From Krischvirus LF73P4: DNA of 64,000 nucleotides. Under the pieces are notes generated by a model, which saw nothing but the letters and a program-made list of their open reading frames with translations, was not told the origin of the DNA and did no database searches. Each line of letters begins with the position of its first letter. Position 1 is the first letter of the stretch. Location: the sequence record OZ035795.1; one strand, written 5' to 3'. The position numbers and the translations under genes are program-made. Positions 16,586 through 27,164 of the stretch are shown here, piece after piece.

Positions 16586-16599
16586 TTAATGAGGTGAAT

Positions 16600-17118
16600 A
16601 TGTCAGAATTTAATTCTTGTGCTGGTCTGGTTAACGAAAAAGATATTAACGCGGCTATCGCCGCATATCATCACGCTATTGCAGAAGGTAAAGATCCGTT
16701 TCAGGTGATGCTCGAAATGCAAACTGGTTTGCAGGTTGCATTATCCGAAAAATTTGATTGGGTCCCAAATCCAACTAAGCTAGAGACTTGCGGTGAAATG
16801 CTGGATTGGATGCAACGGATGGATGACGCTATCGCAGACGAAACACGAGAGCTTTACACATCGCTGGGTGGAATGTCCAATGGTAAAGATGCAAGTGCAA
16901 TCTGGAAAATGTGGAAAAAGAACCACGGAGAAGCGCGAGCGCGTAAATTCTCTGAACTGTCACCGGAAGATCAGCTTGAAGTGAAATTTGAATTTGTGGA
17001 CGCGATCCACTTCATTCTGTCAAAGATGATCCCGCTGGGTATTGACGCTCAAGAACTCTTTATTCTGTACTATCTGAAAAATGCTGAAAACTTCGCCCGT
17101 CAAGAACGCGGCTACTAA
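16600..17118 (+). CDS. hypothetical protein; possible all-alpha NTP pyrophosphatase (MazG/gp56-like)
   Basis: 172 aa; acidic ExxE / ExxD helices; product call tentative. Confidence 0.35.
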   Translation: MSEFNSCAGLVNEKDINAAIAAYHHAIAEGKDPFQVMLEMQTGLQVALSEKFDWVPNPTKLETCGEMLDWMQRMDDAIADETRELYTSLGGMSNGKDASAIWKMWKKNHGEARARKFSELSPEDQLEVKFEFVDAIHFILSKMIPLGIDAQELFILYYLKNAENFARQERGY

Positions 17119-18508: not shown

Positions 18509-18822
18509 TGCATGTATTTGCTGTATGTTATCGTGATAAAGACGGATTCTTTCAATACTCAGTGGACGCGAAGGGTCGCGTCCTAACTTGCGAAACACAT
18601 GATGCTGCGTTAGCGTCAATGTGTGATCAGATAGATTATTGTGAGAGTCTATTGGCAGGTGAACCGAAATACAAGGTTGTACCTAAACGAAAATTTGGCA
18701 TAATCCGGTCTTCTGAAATTGTTCGGGATGGTATCGAATATAAAATTCCTGAATATGAAAAAGAACGGGTACGGCGAGAACTCAATACTATCTGTGTTCG
18801 CAAGGTGAGGATTTTAGGATAA
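18508..18822 (+). CDS. hypothetical protein
   Basis: 104-aa ORF coupled to neighbours. Confidence 0.5.
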   Translation: MHVFAVCYRDKDGFFQYSVDAKGRVLTCETHDAALASMCDQIDYCESLLAGEPKYKVVPKRKFGIIRSSEIVRDGIEYKIPEYEKERVRRELNTICVRKVRILG

Positions 18823-20213
18823 TGAGCAGAGTATTAACTTTCGATATGTTAACAGACGGGCAAAAACATGCTTTTGATGTTCTAATGAAACGCATTGAAC
18901 AAAAGAAGCATACAACTGTCCGTGGTGCGGCGGGTACTGGTAAAACCGCAATGATGAAATTCATTGTTCAGGAAATGGTCCGCCGTGGTGTAACTGGTGT
19001 GGTTTTGGCAACGCCTACCCACCAGGCTAAAAAAGTTTTGAGTAAAGCGGTAGGTCGTCAAGCATTTACTTTACATGCACTACTGCGACTAAACCCGACC
19101 AACTATGAAGATACTCAAGTATTTGAGCAAAAAGATACTCCTAAGCTAGATGATGTTCAGATCATCATTGTTGATGAAGCGAGTATGGTCGATAAGAAAC
19201 TATTTGATATTCTCATGAAGAGTATCAACGGTCGAATTGTTGTTATTGCAGTTGGCGATCCGCACCAGTTACGACCAGTTGATCCGAGCGGTGCAACGTC
19301 GATCTCTCCTTTCTTCACGGATGAAAATTTTCAAAACGTGGAGTTGACAGAAATTAAACGATCTAATGCACCGATCATTGATGTGGCGACCGCTGTCCGT
19401 AATGGTAAATGGGTATTCGAAAAGCAGTGCGGCAACGAGGGTGTATTCCATAGCTCAACTCTGCCGGAGTTTATGAAGCATTATTTCGAAACCGTTAAAA
19501 CGCCGGAAGACCTGCTAGAAAACCGTATTCTGGCCTACACTAACAAGAGCGTCGAAAAACTCAATGAAATTGTGCGTAAGCGCGTTTATAACACCGATGA
19601 ACCAGTGATTGTAGATGAAATTCTGGTTACTCAGGAACCATTGATCGAATATCTGCGAGATGAACGCGGGAAGAAGATTCCCAATGTTATTTTTAACAAT
19701 GGTGAGATGATCCGAGTTAAAGAGGTCATCCCGCGCGAATTTACATTACGTTGCACGGGGGTAGATCCGCAACCAGTTTTAGGCTATACTCTGAAAGTGG
19801 AAAGCGTCGATGATGACGAAGACAAAGAAATCCTAAATCAGAAAGTCGGTTTAGATGCAGTCGGAATCACTACAGATAAACCAGATTTAGTAGAAATCAA
19901 CATTCTGACAGAACAACGTCAGAAGAACATTTTCTCTATCTATCTGAATACGGTCGCCGGACAATATCGCGAAATGAAGAAAGAGAATCCAAAATTTAAA
20001 CCAGATTGGGATTCCTTCTGGACGATGAAGCGTATGTTCTTGAATGTAAAAGCATTACCAGCTTGCACCATTCATAAGTCACAAGGGATCAGCGTAGACC
20101 GCGTGTTCCTGTATACTCCTTGCATGTGTACAGACAATGTTGACTTTGAATTGGCAATGCAGTTATTATATGTGGGTGTTACCCGTGCGCGGTATCGAGT
20201 AGACTATATTTGA
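18822..20213 (+). CDS. dda: DNA helicase Dda (SF1B)
   Basis: 463 aa; Walker A GAAGTGKT; collinear similarity to T4 Dda as recalled. Confidence 0.9.
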   Translation: MSRVLTFDMLTDGQKHAFDVLMKRIEQKKHTTVRGAAGTGKTAMMKFIVQEMVRRGVTGVVLATPTHQAKKVLSKAVGRQAFTLHALLRLNPTNYEDTQVFEQKDTPKLDDVQIIIVDEASMVDKKLFDILMKSINGRIVVIAVGDPHQLRPVDPSGATSISPFFTDENFQNVELTEIKRSNAPIIDVATAVRNGKWVFEKQCGNEGVFHSSTLPEFMKHYFETVKTPEDLLENRILAYTNKSVEKLNEIVRKRVYNTDEPVIVDEILVTQEPLIEYLRDERGKKIPNVIFNNGEMIRVKEVIPREFTLRCTGVDPQPVLGYTLKVESVDDDEDKEILNQKVGLDAVGITTDKPDLVEINILTEQRQKNIFSIYLNTVAGQYREMKKENPKFKPDWDSFWTMKRMFLNVKALPACTIHKSQGISVDRVFLYTPCMCTDNVDFELAMQLLYVGVTRARYRVDYI

Positions 20214-20636: not shown

Positions 20637-21305
20637 ATGCTTCCAGTGGATTTAATGATTGACTTTGAAAGTTTAGGTTATCCGCCCGATGGGGCGGTTA
20701 TCAATATGGCGGCAATCGGATTTAAAGAAGATCCGCACAATCCACCTACATTTAAAGAACTGGTCGACAATTCCTTTCTGGTAAAATTTGATATTCCTTC
20801 CCAGAAAGGTGTAAGGGTGTTTGATCATGGTGTGGTTGAATGGTGGAAGAATACCGCCTCAGAAGGTATGAGAAAGCAATTAATCACAAATGGTACGGAA
20901 GTATCAACTAAAGAAGGTTTAGCGCGTTTTAACGCATTCTGTGAAGCCGTAGGGGTAGATCCGGTTAAATCCGTAATGTGGTCACGCGGTAATGCGTTTG
21001 ATATTCCGTTACTAGTTGATATGATCCGCCGTGCACACAATACACGAGAGACGTTCAGCCTTGAACCTGTGCGATTCTGGAATATCCGAGATGTTCGCAC
21101 CGCCATTGAGCGTACATTGATGCATCGCGGGATGTGTGAGTGTCCGTTACCAATGGGTACGCTAGATGGTTTTATCGCACATGATGCAATTCATGATTGC
21201 GCTCGCGATATTCTTATGCTAATCTATGCACAACGTTATGCTATGGGTCTGGAAGACCTACCAGAAAATCCAGATCCAAATTCAGTTAAGAAACAAAGGG
21301 GATAA
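20637..21305 (+). CDS. dexA: exonuclease A DexA (3'-5' exonuclease)
   Basis: 222 aa from ATG 20637 (GGAGGA upstream); collinear similarity to T4 DexA as recalled. Confidence 0.85.
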   Translation: MLPVDLMIDFESLGYPPDGAVINMAAIGFKEDPHNPPTFKELVDNSFLVKFDIPSQKGVRVFDHGVVEWWKNTASEGMRKQLITNGTEVSTKEGLARFNAFCEAVGVDPVKSVMWSRGNAFDIPLLVDMIRRAHNTRETFSLEPVRFWNIRDVRTAIERTLMHRGMCECPLPMGTLDGFIAHDAIHDCARDILMLIYAQRYAMGLEDLPENPDPNSVKKQRG

Positions 21306-21306
21306 T

Positions 21307-21480
21307 ATGCCATTATACGATTATTCTTGTGAAGAACACGGTCAATTTCAGAAAATCCGCAAAATTTCCGAGCGTGAAAAGGCAGAATGCCCTGAATGCG
21401 GTAAAGAATGCAAACAGGGATTGACTGCCCCGCGCGGGATTAATGGCGGGTACTATGATAAAAATGTGCGCGTGTCATGA
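21307..21480 (+). CDS. small zinc-ribbon protein
   Basis: 57 aa with CxxH...CPECG cysteine pairs; AAGGGG upstream. Confidence 0.45.
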   Translation: MPLYDYSCEEHGQFQKIRKISEREKAECPECGKECKQGLTAPRGINGGYYDKNVRVS

Positions 21481-21578
21481 GTCATATACTTGACAATCAC
21501 TCAATTTTAATATGATTGTTGCAGCCGTCTTTGTGGCGGTTGCAGTAAGTTATGGTTATGTTATGAAGAGGTTTAATA

Positions 21579-23402
21579 ATGAGTGAGTTTCGCATTTTAT
21601 CTGATCGTGAGCATGTCCTTAAGCGTGCAGGAATGTATATAGGATCAACAACTTACGAAGAACATCAACGTTTCCTGTTCGGTAAATGGACAAAAATTTC
21701 ATATGTTCCTGGACTGGTGAAAATCATTGATGAGATCATCGACAACTCTGTAGACGAGGCGATTCGCACTAATTTTGAATTTGCCAATGTGATTAGCGTC
21801 GATATCCAAAACAATATTGTTACGGTAACAGACAACGGTCGCGGTATTCCTCAACATATGGTTACTACCCCAGAGGGCACGCAGATTCCGCAACCTGTAG
21901 CCGCATGGACACGAACAAAAGCAGGGTCTAACTTTGATGATACCAATCGATTAACGCAAGGGATGAACGGTGTAGGGTCGTCGTTGTCAAATTTCTTTAG
22001 CGATTGGTTTACTGGTGTGACCTGTGACGGCGAAACAGAAATGACCGTTCAATGTACAAACGGTGCTGAAAATATCACATGGTCATCGAAACCATCAAAA
22101 TTGAAGGGAACAAAGGTTACATTTTGCCCAGACTTCGACCACTTCGAAGGTTATATGATGGACAACTCTGTTTTAGATATTGTTCATGATCGTCTGCAAT
22201 CATTGAGCGTAATATTTCCTAAGATCACGTTTAAGTTTAATGGTAAACGTATTGTTAGTAAGTTCAAGGATTATGCTAAACTATACAATGATGATCCGTT
22301 TGTCATTGAAGATAAAAACTTTTCACTTGCCCTAGTTCCTGCGGTCGAGGGAGAAGGTTTTAAATCAGTATCCTTTGCTAATGGTCTGTTTACCAAAAAC
22401 GGGGGAACACACGTAGACTACGTGACAGATGATCTTTGTGAAGAGATTGTAAAACGAATCAAGAAAGAATATAAGGTTGATGTTACTAAAGCTGCGGTTA
22501 AATCTGGATTGACCTGTATTCTTATTGTTCGTGAATTGCCTAACCTTCGTTTTGATTCACAGACAAAAGAACGATTGACTAATCCAACTGGTGATATCAA
22601 GCGTCATATTGATCTTGATTTTAAAAAGCTGGCTAAAGTCATTGCGAAGAAAGAAAACATTATCATGCCTATTATTGCTGTAGTCCTGGCACGCAAAGAG
22701 GCAGCAGATAAAGCGGCAGCGACTAAGGCAGCAAAGGCAGCGAAACGGGCTAAGGTAGCAAAACACGTTAAAGCTAACCTTATTGGAACTGACGCAGAAA
22801 CTACCCTGTTTTTGACGGAAGGTGATTCCGCGATCAACTATCTGATCTCTGTACGTGATCAAGATTTACATGGCGGTTTCCCGTTGCGAGGCAAAACTCT
22901 TACAACGTGGGAACAACCGGAGGCAAAGATCGTTAAGAACGCCGAAATTTTTAACATCATGGCGATCACTGGCTTGCAATTTGGTGTTGATGCATTGGAA
23001 GTTATGCAATACAAAAATATTGCGATTATGACAGACGCTGATACTGACGGGATCGGGTCTATTAAACCTAGTCTGATCTCTTTCTTTGCTCGTTGGCCTG
23101 AATTGTTCGAAGATGGACGAATCCGGTTTATCAAAACACCTATTATCATTGCGGAACCAAAGAAAGGTGATGATGTTCGATGGTATTATGACCTAGAAGA
23201 TTTTGAGAACGACCGAGATAATATCAAAGGTTACAACATTCGATATATCAAAGGTTTAGCATCGCTCACAGAATCAGACTATCATCGCGTGATCAACGAT
23301 CCTGTCATGGAGATCATCACGTTACCGGAAAACTATAAAGAGCTATTCGATTTGCTCTATAGTGAAGATTCAGACATGAGGAAGGCATGGATGGCGTCAT
23401 AA
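21579..23402 (+). CDS. 39: DNA topoisomerase II large subunit gp39 (unsplit; includes the part T4 encodes as gene 60)
   Basis: 607 aa; GyrB-like ATPase N-terminus; length matches unsplit T2/T6-type gp39. Confidence 0.9.
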   Translation: MSEFRILSDREHVLKRAGMYIGSTTYEEHQRFLFGKWTKISYVPGLVKIIDEIIDNSVDEAIRTNFEFANVISVDIQNNIVTVTDNGRGIPQHMVTTPEGTQIPQPVAAWTRTKAGSNFDDTNRLTQGMNGVGSSLSNFFSDWFTGVTCDGETEMTVQCTNGAENITWSSKPSKLKGTKVTFCPDFDHFEGYMMDNSVLDIVHDRLQSLSVIFPKITFKFNGKRIVSKFKDYAKLYNDDPFVIEDKNFSLALVPAVEGEGFKSVSFANGLFTKNGGTHVDYVTDDLCEEIVKRIKKEYKVDVTKAAVKSGLTCILIVRELPNLRFDSQTKERLTNPTGDIKRHIDLDFKKLAKVIAKKENIIMPIIAVVLARKEAADKAAATKAAKAAKRAKVAKHVKANLIGTDAETTLFLTEGDSAINYLISVRDQDLHGGFPLRGKTLTTWEQPEAKIVKNAEIFNIMAITGLQFGVDALEVMQYKNIAIMTDADTDGIGSIKPSLISFFARWPELFEDGRIRFIKTPIIIAEPKKGDDVRWYYDLEDFENDRDNIKGYNIRYIKGLASLTESDYHRVINDPVMEIITLPENYKELFDLLYSEDSDMRKAWMAS

Positions 23403-23403
23403 T

Positions 23404-23967
23404 ATGAAAAGTGCGAAATTTTGGAATACTGAAATTCAAGAGGAATTAAAACGAAGATTTGGACACACGGAAGGTGTTCTATATCACAAAACAAATAGTC
23501 CGTCTTTTAATGGTCTGCCAGAGGGATATTTCTACCAAGTCGGTGATAAAGTAAAAACAAAAAAGTTAAATTACGGTCATTTGGCAATAGATGTTTACAA
23601 TAAGGTTAAAAAGAGAACATCTACATATCTTGTACATAGAATTGTCTGGTTTCTTGAATATGGAACACAGGTTAAGGTAATAGACCACATAGACGGGAAT
23701 CCAGAAAACAACAATCCACCAAATTTACGGGAGGCAACACAACAACAAAACATGTACAATAAAAAGAAAATGGACGGGTGCACGAGCATATATAATGGTG
23801 TTACTCATCGCAAAGGATCTAGCAAAAGACCGTGGCAAGCACAAATAAGGATAAACGGATACAGAAAATACATAGGATCGTTTGCTACTCAGGAGGAAGC
23901 CGCTAGAGCATATGATGAATATGCAAAAATTCATCATGGGGAGTTTGCATCTTTAAATTTTAGTTGA
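23404..23967 (+). CDS. HNH homing endonuclease with AP2-type DNA-binding domain
   Basis: HRIVW...IDHIDGNPENN...NLR HNH motif and YRKYIGSFATQEEAARAYDEYA AP2-like segment. Confidence 0.8.
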   Translation: MKSAKFWNTEIQEELKRRFGHTEGVLYHKTNSPSFNGLPEGYFYQVGDKVKTKKLNYGHLAIDVYNKVKKRTSTYLVHRIVWFLEYGTQVKVIDHIDGNPENNNPPNLREATQQQNMYNKKKMDGCTSIYNGVTHRKGSSKRPWQAQIRINGYRKYIGSFATQEEAARAYDEYAKIHHGEFASLNFS

Positions 23968-23991
23968 CACACAAGGGAGATTCTCTATAAT
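23964..23991 (+). promoter_or_regulatory. sigma70-type promoter TTGACA-16-TATAAT with GGGAGA/TCTCCC inverted repeat
   Basis: -35 at 23964-23969, -10 at 23986-23991; T-run 24003-24011. Confidence 0.45.
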
Positions 23992-24025
23992 GGGAGTCTC
24001 CCTTTTCTTTTATGAGGATTTAACG

Positions 24026-24325
24026 ATGAGCAAAAAGAATAACATGATGATGAGTATGGCAAAGTTCATGGAAGCAGACCTGATCAAAAATACAGTACAG
24101 CATGAACGCCAGCGAGAAGCCGCAGTGATTGCAGAACAAGGTTTTCAGGTTATCCGCAATCCACCTAAAGATACGATTAAATCGAAATACAGAGACGATC
24201 TGAAAGACCATGAAGTACGGGAACTGGTTAATGATCTGCGTGACATTGCCATCAAATATCATGGTTATCAGTGCTTACGAGAACTGATCGCAGAGCGAGT
24301 AATGGATGCCCTGAAAAAAGATTAA
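24026..24325 (+). CDS. hypothetical protein
   Basis: 99 aa; GAGGA upstream. Confidence 0.45.
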   Translation: MSKKNNMMMSMAKFMEADLIKNTVQHERQREAAVIAEQGFQVIRNPPKDTIKSKYRDDLKDHEVRELVNDLRDIAIKYHGYQCLRELIAERVMDALKKD

Positions 24326-24332
24326 AAATCTG

Positions 24333-24361
24333 TTGACGCTGGATCGGGGATATATCATAAT
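24333..24361 (+). promoter_or_regulatory. promoter candidate TTGACG-17-CATAAT flanked by GGGGA/TCCCC
   Basis: -35 at 24333-24338, -10 at 24356-24361. Confidence 0.4.
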
Positions 24362-24391
24362 GTCCCCATCGAAAACAAAAGGTTGACTTAT

Positions 24392-24586
24392 ATGAAACCG
24401 TTTAAGAATGAAGAAACTCAAAAATTTTGTGAAAAAATTGCAGAAATCTACTTGACAGGGGAAAAGGAAAAAGCTAATATTATGTTCAAAGAGTCGGTTT
24501 CTATGATGAAAGTAGCACGCTGGGAACTGATCGCAATGCAAGACCAAATTCGTTATCTAGTAACAAAGGAGAATCAAAATGCGTAA
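24392..24586 (+). CDS. hypothetical protein
   Basis: 64-aa ORF. Confidence 0.4.
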   Translation: MKPFKNEETQKFCEKIAEIYLTGEKEKANIMFKESVSMMKVARWELIAMQDQIRYLVTKENQNA

Positions 24587-24773
24587 CCATTACATCGAAC
24601 TGGCAAGCCGTAAAGTTTCAGACCTGAAAGGCGTAATTGCTTACTATGAAGAAGTCCTGAAAAACGAAATTGCGGAGTGGGAACGTAAAGAATACAGCAA
24701 GTGCTTAGAGAAAAGCCGCGCTGAACTGGTTGACGCAGAAGCCCATCTGCAATGGGTGATTGAAAATGTATAA
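24579..24773 (+). CDS. hypothetical protein
   Basis: 64-aa ORF coupled to upstream ORF. Confidence 0.4.
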   Translation: MRNHYIELASRKVSDLKGVIAYYEEVLKNEIAEWERKEYSKCLEKSRAELVDAEAHLQWVIENV

Positions 24774-24783
24774 GGAGTAGAAA

Positions 24784-25041
24784 ATGAGTCGAAGTTTTGA
24801 TTTTCTGATCGCCAAGTGTCATCGAGAAAAGAAATCGATGGACCTGTTTATGAAATGTTTGAGGTATGAATATGCACACCTTCGTAAACACAAAATTGAT
24901 CCGCAAGTTTCCTACGAAAACATCAAGAAATATGCGAAAGAAGTGATTGACAACGATTGCACCGTGACATATAATGCGTTTATTGATTTATGGGCGTGGG
25001 ATGTAATCTACGCAGAGATGGACAAAGAAGATTTTAATTAA
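24784..25041 (+). CDS. hypothetical protein
   Basis: 85-aa ORF. Confidence 0.45.
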   Translation: MSRSFDFLIAKCHREKKSMDLFMKCLRYEYAHLRKHKIDPQVSYENIKKYAKEVIDNDCTVTYNAFIDLWAWDVIYAEMDKEDFN

Positions 25042-25055
25042 GTGAGGATTATATT

Positions 25056-27164
25056 ATGAAAATGCATATCGATAATGAAGAAGTATTTGGCAGTGACCTG
25101 AGCGGTGCGGTTGATTTTTCACTGAAAGCAAGTAGCAAGGCTTTTATGGTGCTTTCTAAGAACACTTATCAATATTGTGAGCGTGCTTGCGTCCGTGAGT
25201 ATTCGTGCAATGCTACCGACACTCACAAAGAAGCCGGAACCTTAGATCGTCCGTTTGATATTCATTTACCGACTGCAATCGAACCGTATTTTTCTGTGCG
25301 TGATTATGGTACGGGTATTCCGTCTAAGAAAGAATTAGAACAACTGTTTACGGTTTACTTTGAATCAACAAAAGACCAGACTAATGATTATATCGGATCT
25401 TTTGGTTTAGGTGCGAAGTCTGCTTATAGCTATACTGACACCTTTACAATCGTAAACTACTACAATGGTCGCGCTTATGGCTTTACTGCATTTGTGCAAA
25501 ACTCTATGCCGAAAATGGTGCAGATTTTCGACGAACCGACCTATGAAGACAACGGTCTGAAAATCACTATTCCGGTGAAAGAAAAAGACATTCAGACATG
25601 GCATCGAGAAGCACAATTTGTACTTCGTCATTTTGGGGAACACAAACCTAATATCAATGCAATCGAAATTAATTATTTCCCTAGCTTTGATAATTATTAT
25701 GTTTGCAATGGGCGTGATAACGATTCCTATGTAGTATATGCAATCATGGGTAAGATCCAGTATCCGATCCCGTATGAATATGTTCGCGGAACATGGTTAG
25801 AAGCTGTAAACCGCCAGCACCAGACCATTTACATTAATTTTGATTTGGGTGATCTGGACCTGATGCCATCGCGCGAAGAAGTTCACTTGTCAATCGAGAC
25901 TAAAGCGAACATCGAAAAACGTATTGCAGAAATCAATGAAATGATGTTGGAAAAGGTTAAAGAAAAGATCGCCAACATTAAAACAGAGCGTAAACTTGCG
26001 CAATTTATGAGCGAGTATTCATCGACTCAACGCAATATTATTAGCAAGATGGGTAAGATCGGGCAGTGGGATGATCCGGTAGCAATCTATAATAAGTTTG
26101 TGAATGCGGGTAAAGATTCGCCTAGTGACGTAGAAGGTCAGGTGTATACTCTGTATCGTACTCGTCACACAATCAGTAAATTGCGCCCTGCTTTCGTTAG
26201 CAGTCAATACAACATTACGCATTTTGTATGGATGCATAAAGAAGATATTCTGTGTGTAATTGATGATACCGATAAACCGAAACTGCGTGCACTGACTCTT
26301 AACGGCATGGTCCAGGAATACGGAATCAATAAAAAGGTACTGGTGTTCCGTCAGCGCAACGAAAAACATATGGAGACTTTCGAGTACATCAAACAGTATT
26401 ATGATGAATCTGAAATGACCGTGATTAAGGTATCAGAGGCCGATGATCTGCGTGCTAAAGCAGTTAAACCGGAAAAGACCGAGCGTACACAACGTGAAGC
26501 GACTCCCAAGCTGCCTAACGTGTATATCATGGAAAAGATTGGTGACAGTTGGCATAAAACCAGCCATCACATGAAAGCGGCAGAGATTCGCGAGTTATCA
26601 GGCTTGCACATGTTCCGCGTAGGTGATGCATTCGAAAGCCGTAGTCGTAAATCGATCTATAGTGAAAATACATTACACACGGCGCTTGACTACTTCGGGG
26701 TAACAAAGTATATTATTACTCGAAACGAGACACAAAAATATCTCGTTGACGAACAATTGGAATGTGCGCTAGAATTTGTTCGCGGTAAGCTGGCTGGTCT
26801 GGCTAAGAAGGTTAAGACCAATCATCTGGGGTATGGCGAATATCTGGGTGTGATCACTATGTTGTTTCATGACGATGAACTAGAACGCTGTGTTCCAGAA
26901 TTTATTGACAGACTGTACGGTCGTCATTATAATAAAGAGGTTTCCAAGTTACTCCTTCGTACTCGTTGGATTATGGACGAAGAAACTAAAAAGATCTGTG
27001 ATGAAAAATTCACGGCAGCAAACGAACGAATTAAAGCAGTTTGTGCGAAGTTTAAAGAGAATAGCCCGTTACTGTATGATATTGTAGATAACTGGTATCG
27101 TATTCTGCATAACGACAAACGCGCACAAGACTTTATGAAACTGGTTAAGAATGTTAAATTTTAA
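25056..27164 (+). CDS. rIIA: rIIA lysis-inhibition/membrane integrity protein
   Basis: 702 aa; GHKL-like boxes (REYSCNATD, RDYGTGI, GSFGLGAKSA); adjacent to rIIB. Confidence 0.8.
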   Translation: MKMHIDNEEVFGSDLSGAVDFSLKASSKAFMVLSKNTYQYCERACVREYSCNATDTHKEAGTLDRPFDIHLPTAIEPYFSVRDYGTGIPSKKELEQLFTVYFESTKDQTNDYIGSFGLGAKSAYSYTDTFTIVNYYNGRAYGFTAFVQNSMPKMVQIFDEPTYEDNGLKITIPVKEKDIQTWHREAQFVLRHFGEHKPNINAIEINYFPSFDNYYVCNGRDNDSYVVYAIMGKIQYPIPYEYVRGTWLEAVNRQHQTIYINFDLGDLDLMPSREEVHLSIETKANIEKRIAEINEMMLEKVKEKIANIKTERKLAQFMSEYSSTQRNIISKMGKIGQWDDPVAIYNKFVNAGKDSPSDVEGQVYTLYRTRHTISKLRPAFVSSQYNITHFVWMHKEDILCVIDDTDKPKLRALTLNGMVQEYGINKKVLVFRQRNEKHMETFEYIKQYYDESEMTVIKVSEADDLRAKAVKPEKTERTQREATPKLPNVYIMEKIGDSWHKTSHHMKAAEIRELSGLHMFRVGDAFESRSRKSIYSENTLHTALDYFGVTKYIITRNETQKYLVDEQLECALEFVRGKLAGLAKKVKTNHLGYGEYLGVITMLFHDDELERCVPEFIDRLYGRHYNKEVSKLLLRTRWIMDEETKKICDEKFTAANERIKAVCAKFKENSPLLYDIVDNWYRILHNDKRAQDFMKLVKNVKF

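Follow-up and report, generated by a model that had tools for sequence, protein, structure and literature searches.

What is an endonuclease gene doing one nucleotide behind the topoisomerase gene 39 of a T4-type coliphage, and how could it have come to lie there without harm to that gene? The locus occupies positions 21,579 to 23,967 of a 64,000-nucleotide (nt) stretch of DNA from Krischvirus LF73P4 (record OZ035795.1), which was analysed as a whole and is referred to below as the window. An initial annotation had described an unsplit gene 39 followed by an open reading frame (ORF) of 187 amino acids (aa) with an HNH motif and an AP2-type segment, and had suggested that the endonuclease may be aimed at the gene 39 alleles of related phages. 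Our analysis indicates that the locus is probably a free-standing HNH(HNN)-AP2 homing endonuclease cassette, lodged between gene 39 and the next promoter-stem-loop element (PeSL), one of the elements known from the RB49 and phi1 genomes (Arbiol et al. 2010, PMC2839356). The ORF itself belongs to a well-known class, among whose uncharacterised members it counts, and annotated copies of it are already on deposit from several genomes; what is new here is the precise anatomy of the element, a hypervariable, target-like tract at the end of gene 39 and the use of both ends of that gene by three different endonuclease genes within the genus. The features on which the argument rests are as follows.

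21579-23402, plus strand: gene 39, the unsplit large subunit of topoisomerase II, 607 aa, equivalent to T4 gp39 plus gp60 (ORF list, Pfam, PHROG).
23370-23402, plus strand: recoded, hypervariable 3' tail of gene 39, its last 11 codons (DSDMRKAWMAS and stop), proposed as the recognition or cleavage region in endonuclease-less alleles and as an immunity determinant here (alignments, linkage, diversity).
23375-23963, plus strand: segment of 589 nt specific to endonuclease-bearing phages, the presumed mobile unit being the recoded tail plus the ORF (blastn against five endonuclease-less genomes).
23404-23967, plus strand: free-standing HNH(HNN)-AP2 endonuclease gene, 187 aa (ORF list, Pfam, PHROG, profile, AlphaFold/Foldseek).
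23964-23991, plus strand: perfect sigma-70 early promoter of the PeSL (TTGACA-16-TATAAT), at the right-hand insertion boundary (12/12 promoter match; promoter, -35 and -10 annotated in GEC-3S).
23973-24013, plus strand: intrinsic terminator of the PeSL, a hairpin with a 13-pair stem and then the T-run TTCTTTTATG (terminator scan; terminator annotated in G5211, GEC-3S and Makalu_002).

The 187-aa ORF starts one nucleotide past the gene 39 stop, as had been reported (TAA at 23400-23402, then T23403), and contains both the HNH motif previously quoted, VIDHIDGNPENNNPPNLRE, and the sequence AARAYDEYAKIHHGEFASLNF, with the YxGV ... RAYD motifs of AP2. Pfam placed HNH_3 at aa 75-118 (6e-14) and the ORF matched PHROG 99 at 2e-48, while the AP2 match (E=2e-5, 25.2 bits) lay below the gathering score of 33.3, so that Pfam alone is insufficient to confirm this domain. 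A family profile was built from 44 database homologues, across which D94, H95, N103, N107, R109 and N119 are invariant (D94 and H95 being catalytic), and it matched I-HmuI (1U3E) over the N-terminal sheet plus nuclease with E=2.7e-15 and plant AP2/ERF structures with E=1e-22 to 4e-9 (WRI1 at 1e-22, ERF96, TEM1 and ERF1). The AlphaFold model of the protein, with a predicted local distance difference test score (pLDDT) of 92.6 and a predicted template modelling (TM) score of 0.82, was aligned by Foldseek with 1u3e (probability 1.0, 103 columns, root-mean-square deviation 3.5 Å) and with 1gcc, the AP2 domain of ERF1 (TM 0.78, root-mean-square deviation 1.6 Å, 41% identity). The resulting domain layout is an I-HmuI-like N-terminal sheet plus nuclease at about aa 19-120 and AP2 at about aa 130-186. 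By profile and fold, the protein combines an intact HNH nuclease of the HNN, beta-beta-alpha-metal type with a DNA-binding AP2 domain made of a three-stranded sheet and a helix, which bears out the two assignments made from the letters alone and supplies the profile support for an HNH fold on which they depended. It falls into HNH-AP2, a catalogued class of free-standing homing endonucleases from phages, with putative cleavage activity; its gene, bounded by the stop of gene 39 and by the PeSL that serves the following gene, lies in neither an intron nor an intein. Its GC content is 36% (29% at third codon positions) against approximately 41% in the neighbouring genes.

Megablast placed the window in Krischvirus, the genus of RB49/JSE/phi1-like coliphages, with best matches over 21000-25000 to kvi (98.6%), pEJ01 (98.2%) and W115 (98.1%), none of them identical. 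Gene 39 was present in 58/58 Krischvirus records, and the ORF was found by tblastn in eight of these (JSE in two records, G5211, G37-3, W115, FL15, pEJ01 and kvi; seven phages from at least two species), always directly after gene 39. The site was empty in the remaining 50 records, including RB49, Phi1 and GEC-3S, so the notion that the ORF might sit at the same position in all relatives falls away; the two states even occur within one species, where kvi carries the ORF and kaaroe and RB49 do not. All copies were intact, with no truncated or frameshifted ones among the eight records, and shared at least 98.4% protein identity, the copy in the window being 100% identical in protein to EpJSE_00005 of JSE; the best other matches were paralogues at other loci with at most 49% identity. 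The ORF is annotated as "HNH endonuclease" or "homing endonuclease" in W115, G5211 and FL15. The exact protein was also indexed in 129 blocks of public assemblies, and gene 39 preceded the ORF in 4/4 distinct contexts shown. Scans of IMG/VR gave no match to the recoded tail and one to the RB49-type tail; Krischvirus is nearly absent from that resource, so these scans are no census. A scan of JGI metagenomes with a degenerate tail plus PeSL pattern gave two contigs, both SSG23/Makalu-type; a recoded tail that lacked the ORF was not among them. In a large protein database, the nearest homologue that is not identical (P0002, 51% identity, L027:323-895) comes from a short metagenome contig, where it adjoins Phage_DsbA and Trans_coact genes, a further insertion context of the HNH-AP2 family.

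The boundaries of the insertion could be placed to the nucleotide by blastn, since homology to five endonuclease-less genomes ended at 23374 and restarted at 23964, with 589 nt in place of 31 nt. The left boundary lies within the coding sequence of gene 39, and the first 28 nt of the segment re-encode the gene 39 tail, with 13 substitutions relative to the RB49 type in the last 27 nt before the stop (the last 9-10 codons), several of them synonymous (GAT to GAC, CGC to AGG, AAA to AAG); the tail peptide reads DSDMRKAWMAS here and DADQRKIWMQS in the RB49 type. A donor of the recoded tail was sought by tblastn with the last 34 aa of gp39, and no phage outside Krischvirus exceeded 60% identity. 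The right end of the insertion falls exactly at the -35 hexamer TTGACA of the PeSL promoter, and the stop codon of the endonuclease (TGA, 23965-23967) sits within this hexamer. The PeSL promoter in turn overlaps the hairpin and T-run of the PeSL terminator, which ends the gene 39 / endonuclease transcript, and a PeSL was found at the right end only (23964-24013), the left side having none. The ORF has no promoter of its own: it abuts gene 39 as TAAtATG and ends just ahead of the PeSL terminator, the promoter scan gave no sigma-70 site upstream of it, and neither the T4 late motif (TATAAATA) nor a MotA box was found in 21000-24400. This promoter-less, abutting layout is typical for the seg and mob genes of T4 (PMC2988022). 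No description of the insertion anatomy (recoded tail, stop within the -35 box, hypervariability of the empty site) was found in the literature.

When 2.9 kb of sequence were aligned from eight ORF-bearing and five empty-site genomes, the only fixed differences were those of the recoded tail. A linkage test on 19 sequences gave r2=1 between presence of the ORF and positions 23376-23403 only, and the recoded tail allele was perfectly linked with the ORF in all eight records and in four metagenome contigs. By contrast with this linkage, ORF state and the alleles of single-nucleotide polymorphisms (SNPs) occurred in all four combinations on either side: at 23363, which is 13 nt left of the linked positions, and at 24024/24025, which are 57-58 nt beyond the end of the ORF. 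Four gametes on both sides mean that the ORF plus the recoded tail form one tight unit, which has been moved among backgrounds or lost and regained. The suggestion that the endonuclease is aimed at the gene 39 alleles of relatives fits these data, in that the tail substitutions are the only differences that track the ORF, and they would make the tail the candidate target.

The tail is also the most variable part of the region in phages that have no ORF. Over the C-terminal 34 aa of gp39, compared with all phages, the eight ORF-bearing records were 100% identical to the window, 38 records were at 88% (RB49 type) and 12 at 91%; among the endonuclease-less phages the tail reads DSDRRKIWMQS in ECD7/Whisky, DSDRRKAWMQS in JEP8 and DSDRRKEWMCS in SSG23/Makalu, where one or two additional A residues stand ahead of the promoter. 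A 114-nt RB49 query sorted the 50 empty-site records into 37 of RB49 type (at least 98%) and 13 in at least four other identity classes. The variant tails of endonuclease-less records comprise at least five haplotypes, and at least six are known among relatives. Across six tail haplotypes the arginine codon takes the forms CGC, CGA, AGA, CGT and AGG, and the aspartate, lysine and serine of the tail vary synonymously too, the single-codon residues tryptophan and methionine being constant. T4 gp60 ends in ...DLRKEWMSQ, and the conservation of RK-WM across genera, as far as T4, indicates that the gene 39 tail is functionally constrained and not freely drifting. In 11 empty-site genomes, nucleotide diversity (pi) was 0.19 at 23370-23402 against 0.03 in the remaining 1.1 kb, a sample enriched for variant tails in which pi is inflated and the contrast with the flank of the same genomes is unaffected; segregating sites numbered 15/33 in the tail and 107/1107 in the flank (Fisher p=2e-7), and the tail held the top 30-nt window. 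That the tail is the target of the enzyme, and its hypervariability driven by it, we put at a little under an even chance. As a separate observation, the A-run between the gene 39 stop and CACTTGACA varies among SSG23/Makalu-type empty sites (TAAAACAC, TAAAAACAC, TAAAAAAACAC; L016, L017, L028, L029), a homopolymer length polymorphism close upstream of the -35 box.

Other positions in Krischvirus genomes are occupied in a similar manner. The HNH-AP2 gene has no paralogue within the window, and two sites that are empty here carry such paralogues in relatives. At 16595-16605, between genes 61 and 56, a paralogue of 48.7% identity is found in AV108, KFS-EC, ELT3 and others (L021:1495-2058), and the adjacent gene 56 of AV108 is diverged by approximately 30% over about 450 nt (9-26 mismatches to the window in each 50 nt, falling to about 1 in 50 farther on). 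At about 232-236, between a-gt.4 and gene 47, RB49 has the HNH-AP2 paralogue ORF040 (42.5% identity, L022:1495-2049), inserted directly ahead of the gene 47 start codon. A further site lies at the other end of gene 39 itself:

21549-21578, plus strand: second landing site, immediately 5' of gene 39 and without an insertion in the window (comparison with relatives).

In G5211 and 12 other Krischvirus records (13 in all), a 242-aa ORF with an Endonuclease_7 domain stands directly upstream of gene 39, and G5211 has the 3' HNH-AP2 ORF as well. The 5' segment of gene 39 beside the Endonuclease_7 ORF is only about 80% identical to the RB49 type, a divergence that extends for as much as 730 nt; in G37-3 this segment is diverged and the ORF is missing. 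Metagenome contigs with the exact 3' ORF showed three states of the 5' flank: empty (L026), with the Endonuclease_7 ORF, in which case the diverged head of gene 39 was long in L024 and short in L025, or with a different HNH-AP2 ORF of 179 aa (L023), which is 47% identical over the C-terminal half and precedes a gene 39 whose first 200 nt hold 55 mismatches. The diverged 5' segments after these 5'-flank ORFs (L004:1085-1813, L024:441-1169, L023:619-1158) span 100-730 nt. Divergence of the gene segment abutting an endonuclease is thus a recurring feature in Krischvirus, and both ends of gene 39 have been used by three different endonuclease genes. A terminator-like hairpin of 14 pairs at 21516-21548, about 30 nt ahead of the gene 39 start, overlaps a small ORF annotated in relatives (RB49p006.1, 36 aa), and the 5'-flank endonuclease insertions start just downstream of it.

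The intact domains and fold, the patchy presence, the tail linkage, the four gametes, the lower GC content and the recurrence at other sites together lead to the reading of the locus as a homing cassette. Under it, gene 39 and the ORF would share a transcript, and coupling by termination-reinitiation at TAAtATG would give low-level translation of the ORF. In a mixed infection the enzyme, deriving its specificity from the AP2 domain and the N-terminal sheet, would bind the junction of gene 39 tail and PeSL in a phage that lacks the endonuclease and nick or cut this empty-site junction, and T4-type recombination-dependent repair from the endonuclease-bearing genome would copy the cassette in. 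The carrier would be immune through its recoded tail and through the insertion, which parts the two halves of the site, and the variant tails of endonuclease-less phages would be escape alleles and repair footprints. A bolder and more tentative form of this proposal, to which we give somewhat less than an even chance, is that endonuclease and target are engaged in a continuing contest over the last 11 codons of gene 39, in which the element carries a cleavage-immune rewrite, endonuclease-less phages have changed the same 30 nt of DNA time and again while keeping the RK-WM residues needed for function, and the empty-site tails are natural resistance alleles. If true, gene 39, with two other endonuclease families at its 5' end, would be a compact natural system for the study of endonuclease invasion, target escape and co-conversion in an easily isolated genus.

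Several observations weigh against this proposal or parts of it, besides the inflation of pi by the choice of genomes. An extended co-conversion tract was not found, there being no fixed differences outside 23370-23403 and the linked differences being confined to the 27-nt tail. No convincing Shine-Dalgarno sequence stands at the usual spacing (GAGGAAGG ends 18 nt ahead of the ATG), and no significant RNA structure was predicted at the ORF start (z=0.48). A literature search for cleavage or homing experiments on T4-type HNH-AP2 enzymes, the 187-aa protein included, found none. Finally, the tail varies also among phages without the ORF and occupies the position of an UP element of the PeSL promoter, and some of the variation there could have arisen independently of the endonuclease.

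Carried to its full extent, this last point becomes the alternative that survives best, namely that tail hypervariability has nothing to do with the endonuclease and reflects UP-element tuning or a diversifying selection that acts on the C-terminus of gp39; the ORF would then have hitch-hiked with one allele. The tail takes up the positions 4-35 nt ahead of the -35 box in phages that lack the endonuclease, it varies among phages in which the ORF is never seen, and two metagenome contigs with the SSG23-type tail differ in the length of the A-run ahead of the promoter; promoter or gp39 selection is a real alternative for variation at the empty site. It leaves unexplained, however, why one allele should be perfectly linked to the ORF in 8/8 records and the four metagenome contigs. 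Synonymous positions, moreover, are near saturation while RK-WM is kept, and divergence of the adjacent gene recurs at three other endonuclease sites that are not likewise promoter-adjacent. Taken as a whole, we consider this alternative unlikely.

A second alternative is passive shuffling, in which the cassette was moved by recombination between repeated PeSLs and the nuclease plays no part. The right boundary does fall exactly at the -35 TTGACA of a PeSL, the unit has recombination breakpoints no farther off than 13 and 60 nt, and PeSLs mediate the insertion and deletion of ORFs between RB49 and phi1 (PMC2839356), whose cassettes resemble the element described here in genus, in abutting a PeSL, in using the PeSL terminator and in leaving the PeSL promoter to serve the downstream gene. 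The element differs from them in having a PeSL on one side only, a nuclease cargo in place of an ORFan and a left junction within coding sequence; a modular cassette with a PeSL on both sides was rejected on this last ground, the left end being within gene 39. Exchange between PeSLs leaves the recoded tail at that boundary unexplained, the cargo is an intact nuclease of site-specific type from a homing endonuclease class, and the paralogues at 61/56 and a-gt.4/47 lie away from PeSL boundaries and show the same adjacent divergence, all of which makes shuffling improbable.

Somewhat less probable again is an ancestral Krischvirus gene that was lost repeatedly, with the tail differences as lineage divergence. 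All copies do occupy one site, and movement between genera was not seen, but each loss would need to restore a different in-frame tail, presence and absence alternate within a species with four gametes at SNPs that lie 13 and 57-58 nt off, none of the copies seen, which are at least 98.4% identical, was degraded, and the GC content of the ORF is below that of host genes. Least probable of all, and by our estimate very improbable, is a domesticated DNA-binding regulator or exclusion nuclease that serves the phage and is not mobile, since, although AP2 domains are transcription factors elsewhere and the protein is intact and strongly conserved, it is dispensable in approximately 86% of sequenced relatives, its catalytic residues are intact, and the exclusion of competitors by allele cutting is homing or marker exclusion under another name (PMC2988022).

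The homing cassette reading can also be set against known systems. With the HNH-AP2 class, whose members include RB49 ORF040 and those of JSE, RB16/RB43, Klebsiella T4-type phages and the Xanthomonas phages Xp10/OP1/Xop411, the ORF shares an HNN-type HNH_3 domain followed by AP2, its size, a free-standing intergenic position and a patchy distribution; identity to paralogues at other Krischvirus and Klebsiella phage sites is 42-49%, and there is no difference in kind. Putative homing endonucleases of the HNH-AP2 type are reportedly treated by Magnani et al. 2004. The class was described in Xanthomonas phages (Lee et al. 2007, PMC2248197), and its members were counted in T4-related genomes, with two in JSE, one in RB49 and six in RB16 (Petrov et al. 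2010, PMC2993671, Table 5). No mapped cleavage site for a T4-type member was found in the literature.

I-HmuI (1U3E), an intron-encoded HNH nicking endonuclease of the Bacillus phage SPO1, has the same N-terminal antiparallel sheet and HNN nuclease domain, a likeness that, by analogy, predicts an extended monomer nicking one strand. It differs in its C-terminal helix-turn-helix, in place of which the 187-aa protein has AP2, and in its intron location, the ORF described here lying outside any intron beside a continuous gene 39. An intron-encoded endonuclease of the I-HmuI type was ruled out in that an Rfam scan of 21300-24500 gave no intron and no other RNA family and gene 39 is continuous.

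The initial annotation had further pointed to a mobile endonuclease of T4 at the same locus and to the junction as a recurrent landing site. T4 mobA does lie between genes 39 and 60, and the host gene is the same. The MobA element, however, interrupts the topoisomerase ORF at aa 466-491, dividing the gene in two and adding a 50-nt bypass (bioRxiv 10.1101/2022.08.31.505936; for the cassette of mobA and the 50-nt bypass, Bonocora et al. 2011 as cited there), so that its site is about 115 codons ahead of the stop and at another junction; the insertion in the window follows the stop codon, with neither split nor bypass. Kinship was rejected, intact HY01 MobA giving E=1 by BLASTP and MobA being a 272-aa PF01844 protein, not HNH_3, with no AP2. 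Gene 39 is accordingly a recurrent landing site within Krischvirus, in view of the Endonuclease_7 or other HNH-AP2 ORF at the 5' flank in relatives, while T4 MobA has landed elsewhere. The two elements nevertheless have in common the host gene, a promoter-less ORF abutting the upstream frame and a diverged replacement supplied by the element itself, since MobA deletes 55-75 nt of the host ORF and brings a diverged homologous replacement, "homR", with its nick site (bioRxiv 10.1101/2022.08.31.505936). The likeness of homR to the recoded tail is one of design, not of descent.

Intronless homing by the Seg and Mob enzymes of T4 (SegF/gene 56, SegG/gene 32, MobE/nrdB; Belle et al. 2002; PMC2988022) offers a further parallel, in that the ORF adjoins an essential gene presumed to be cut, the neighbour gene shows localised divergence, and expression is polycistronic and promoter-less with poor translation signals (PMC2988022). 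Those enzymes, unlike the 187-aa ORF, have mapped cleavage sites and measured marker exclusion, and the diverged tract in the window is unusually short, at 27 nt, and lies right at the insertion point.

As a finding in itself, the gene is of little weight, being in GenBank, identical in JSE and of a class catalogued in 2010. The comparative data, on the other hand, narrow the candidate target to approximately 45 bp, a natural panel of alleles exists in easily grown coliphages (RB49, ECD7, JEP8, SSG23 and recoded types), and the locus shows how an element may adjoin an essential gene harmlessly, by bringing its own recoded copy of the displaced codons.

Gene 39 carries the Pfam domains DNA_gyraseB, HATPase_c, Toprim and TOPRIM_C, and its product aligned over residues 2-606 with PHROG 543 (topoisomerase II large subunit, E=1e-252), an end-to-end match which means one continuous gene with no gap and no bypass, in agreement with the ORF list, the sequence and the single 607-aa protein originally proposed. 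It is annotated likewise in RB49, JSE, W115 and Phi1, and the RB49 record itself equates its gene 39 with T4 gp60 plus gp39; the unsplit state is the usual one in RB49-type phages and is ordinary for Krischvirus. The split into genes 39 and 60, on the other hand, had been called T4-specific, which is not strictly so, given that five other clades as well as 14 close relatives of T4 carry the MobA/bypass element (bioRxiv 10.1101/2022.08.31.505936).

The region around gene 39 is a T4-type early region, with dda at 18822-20213, dexA at 20637-21305, a zinc-ribbon gp39.2 homologue and rIIA at 25056-27164 as neighbours (Pfam/PHROG). Immediately downstream of the element lies one more gene:

24026-24325, plus strand: homologue of RB49 ORF005, 99 aa, outside the element and marking the conserved right flank (PHROG 15065; a 300-nt gene is annotated in RB49, JSE and Phi1).

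A longer ORF call for this gene (23990-24325), taken in several GenBank records, starts at an ATG (23990) that falls within the -10 region of the PeSL promoter, and PHROG 15065 covers residues 13-111 of that call; the true start is probably the ATG at 24026, with GAGGA ahead of it. Further downstream, two overlapping small ORFs (24383-24586 and 24579-24773) in the window, RB49 and kvi are replaced in JSE (L002) and FL15 (L008) by one ORF of 195 nt, an indel polymorphism of about 180 nt (24383-24773) within the cluster of ORFans that separates gene 39 from rIIA.

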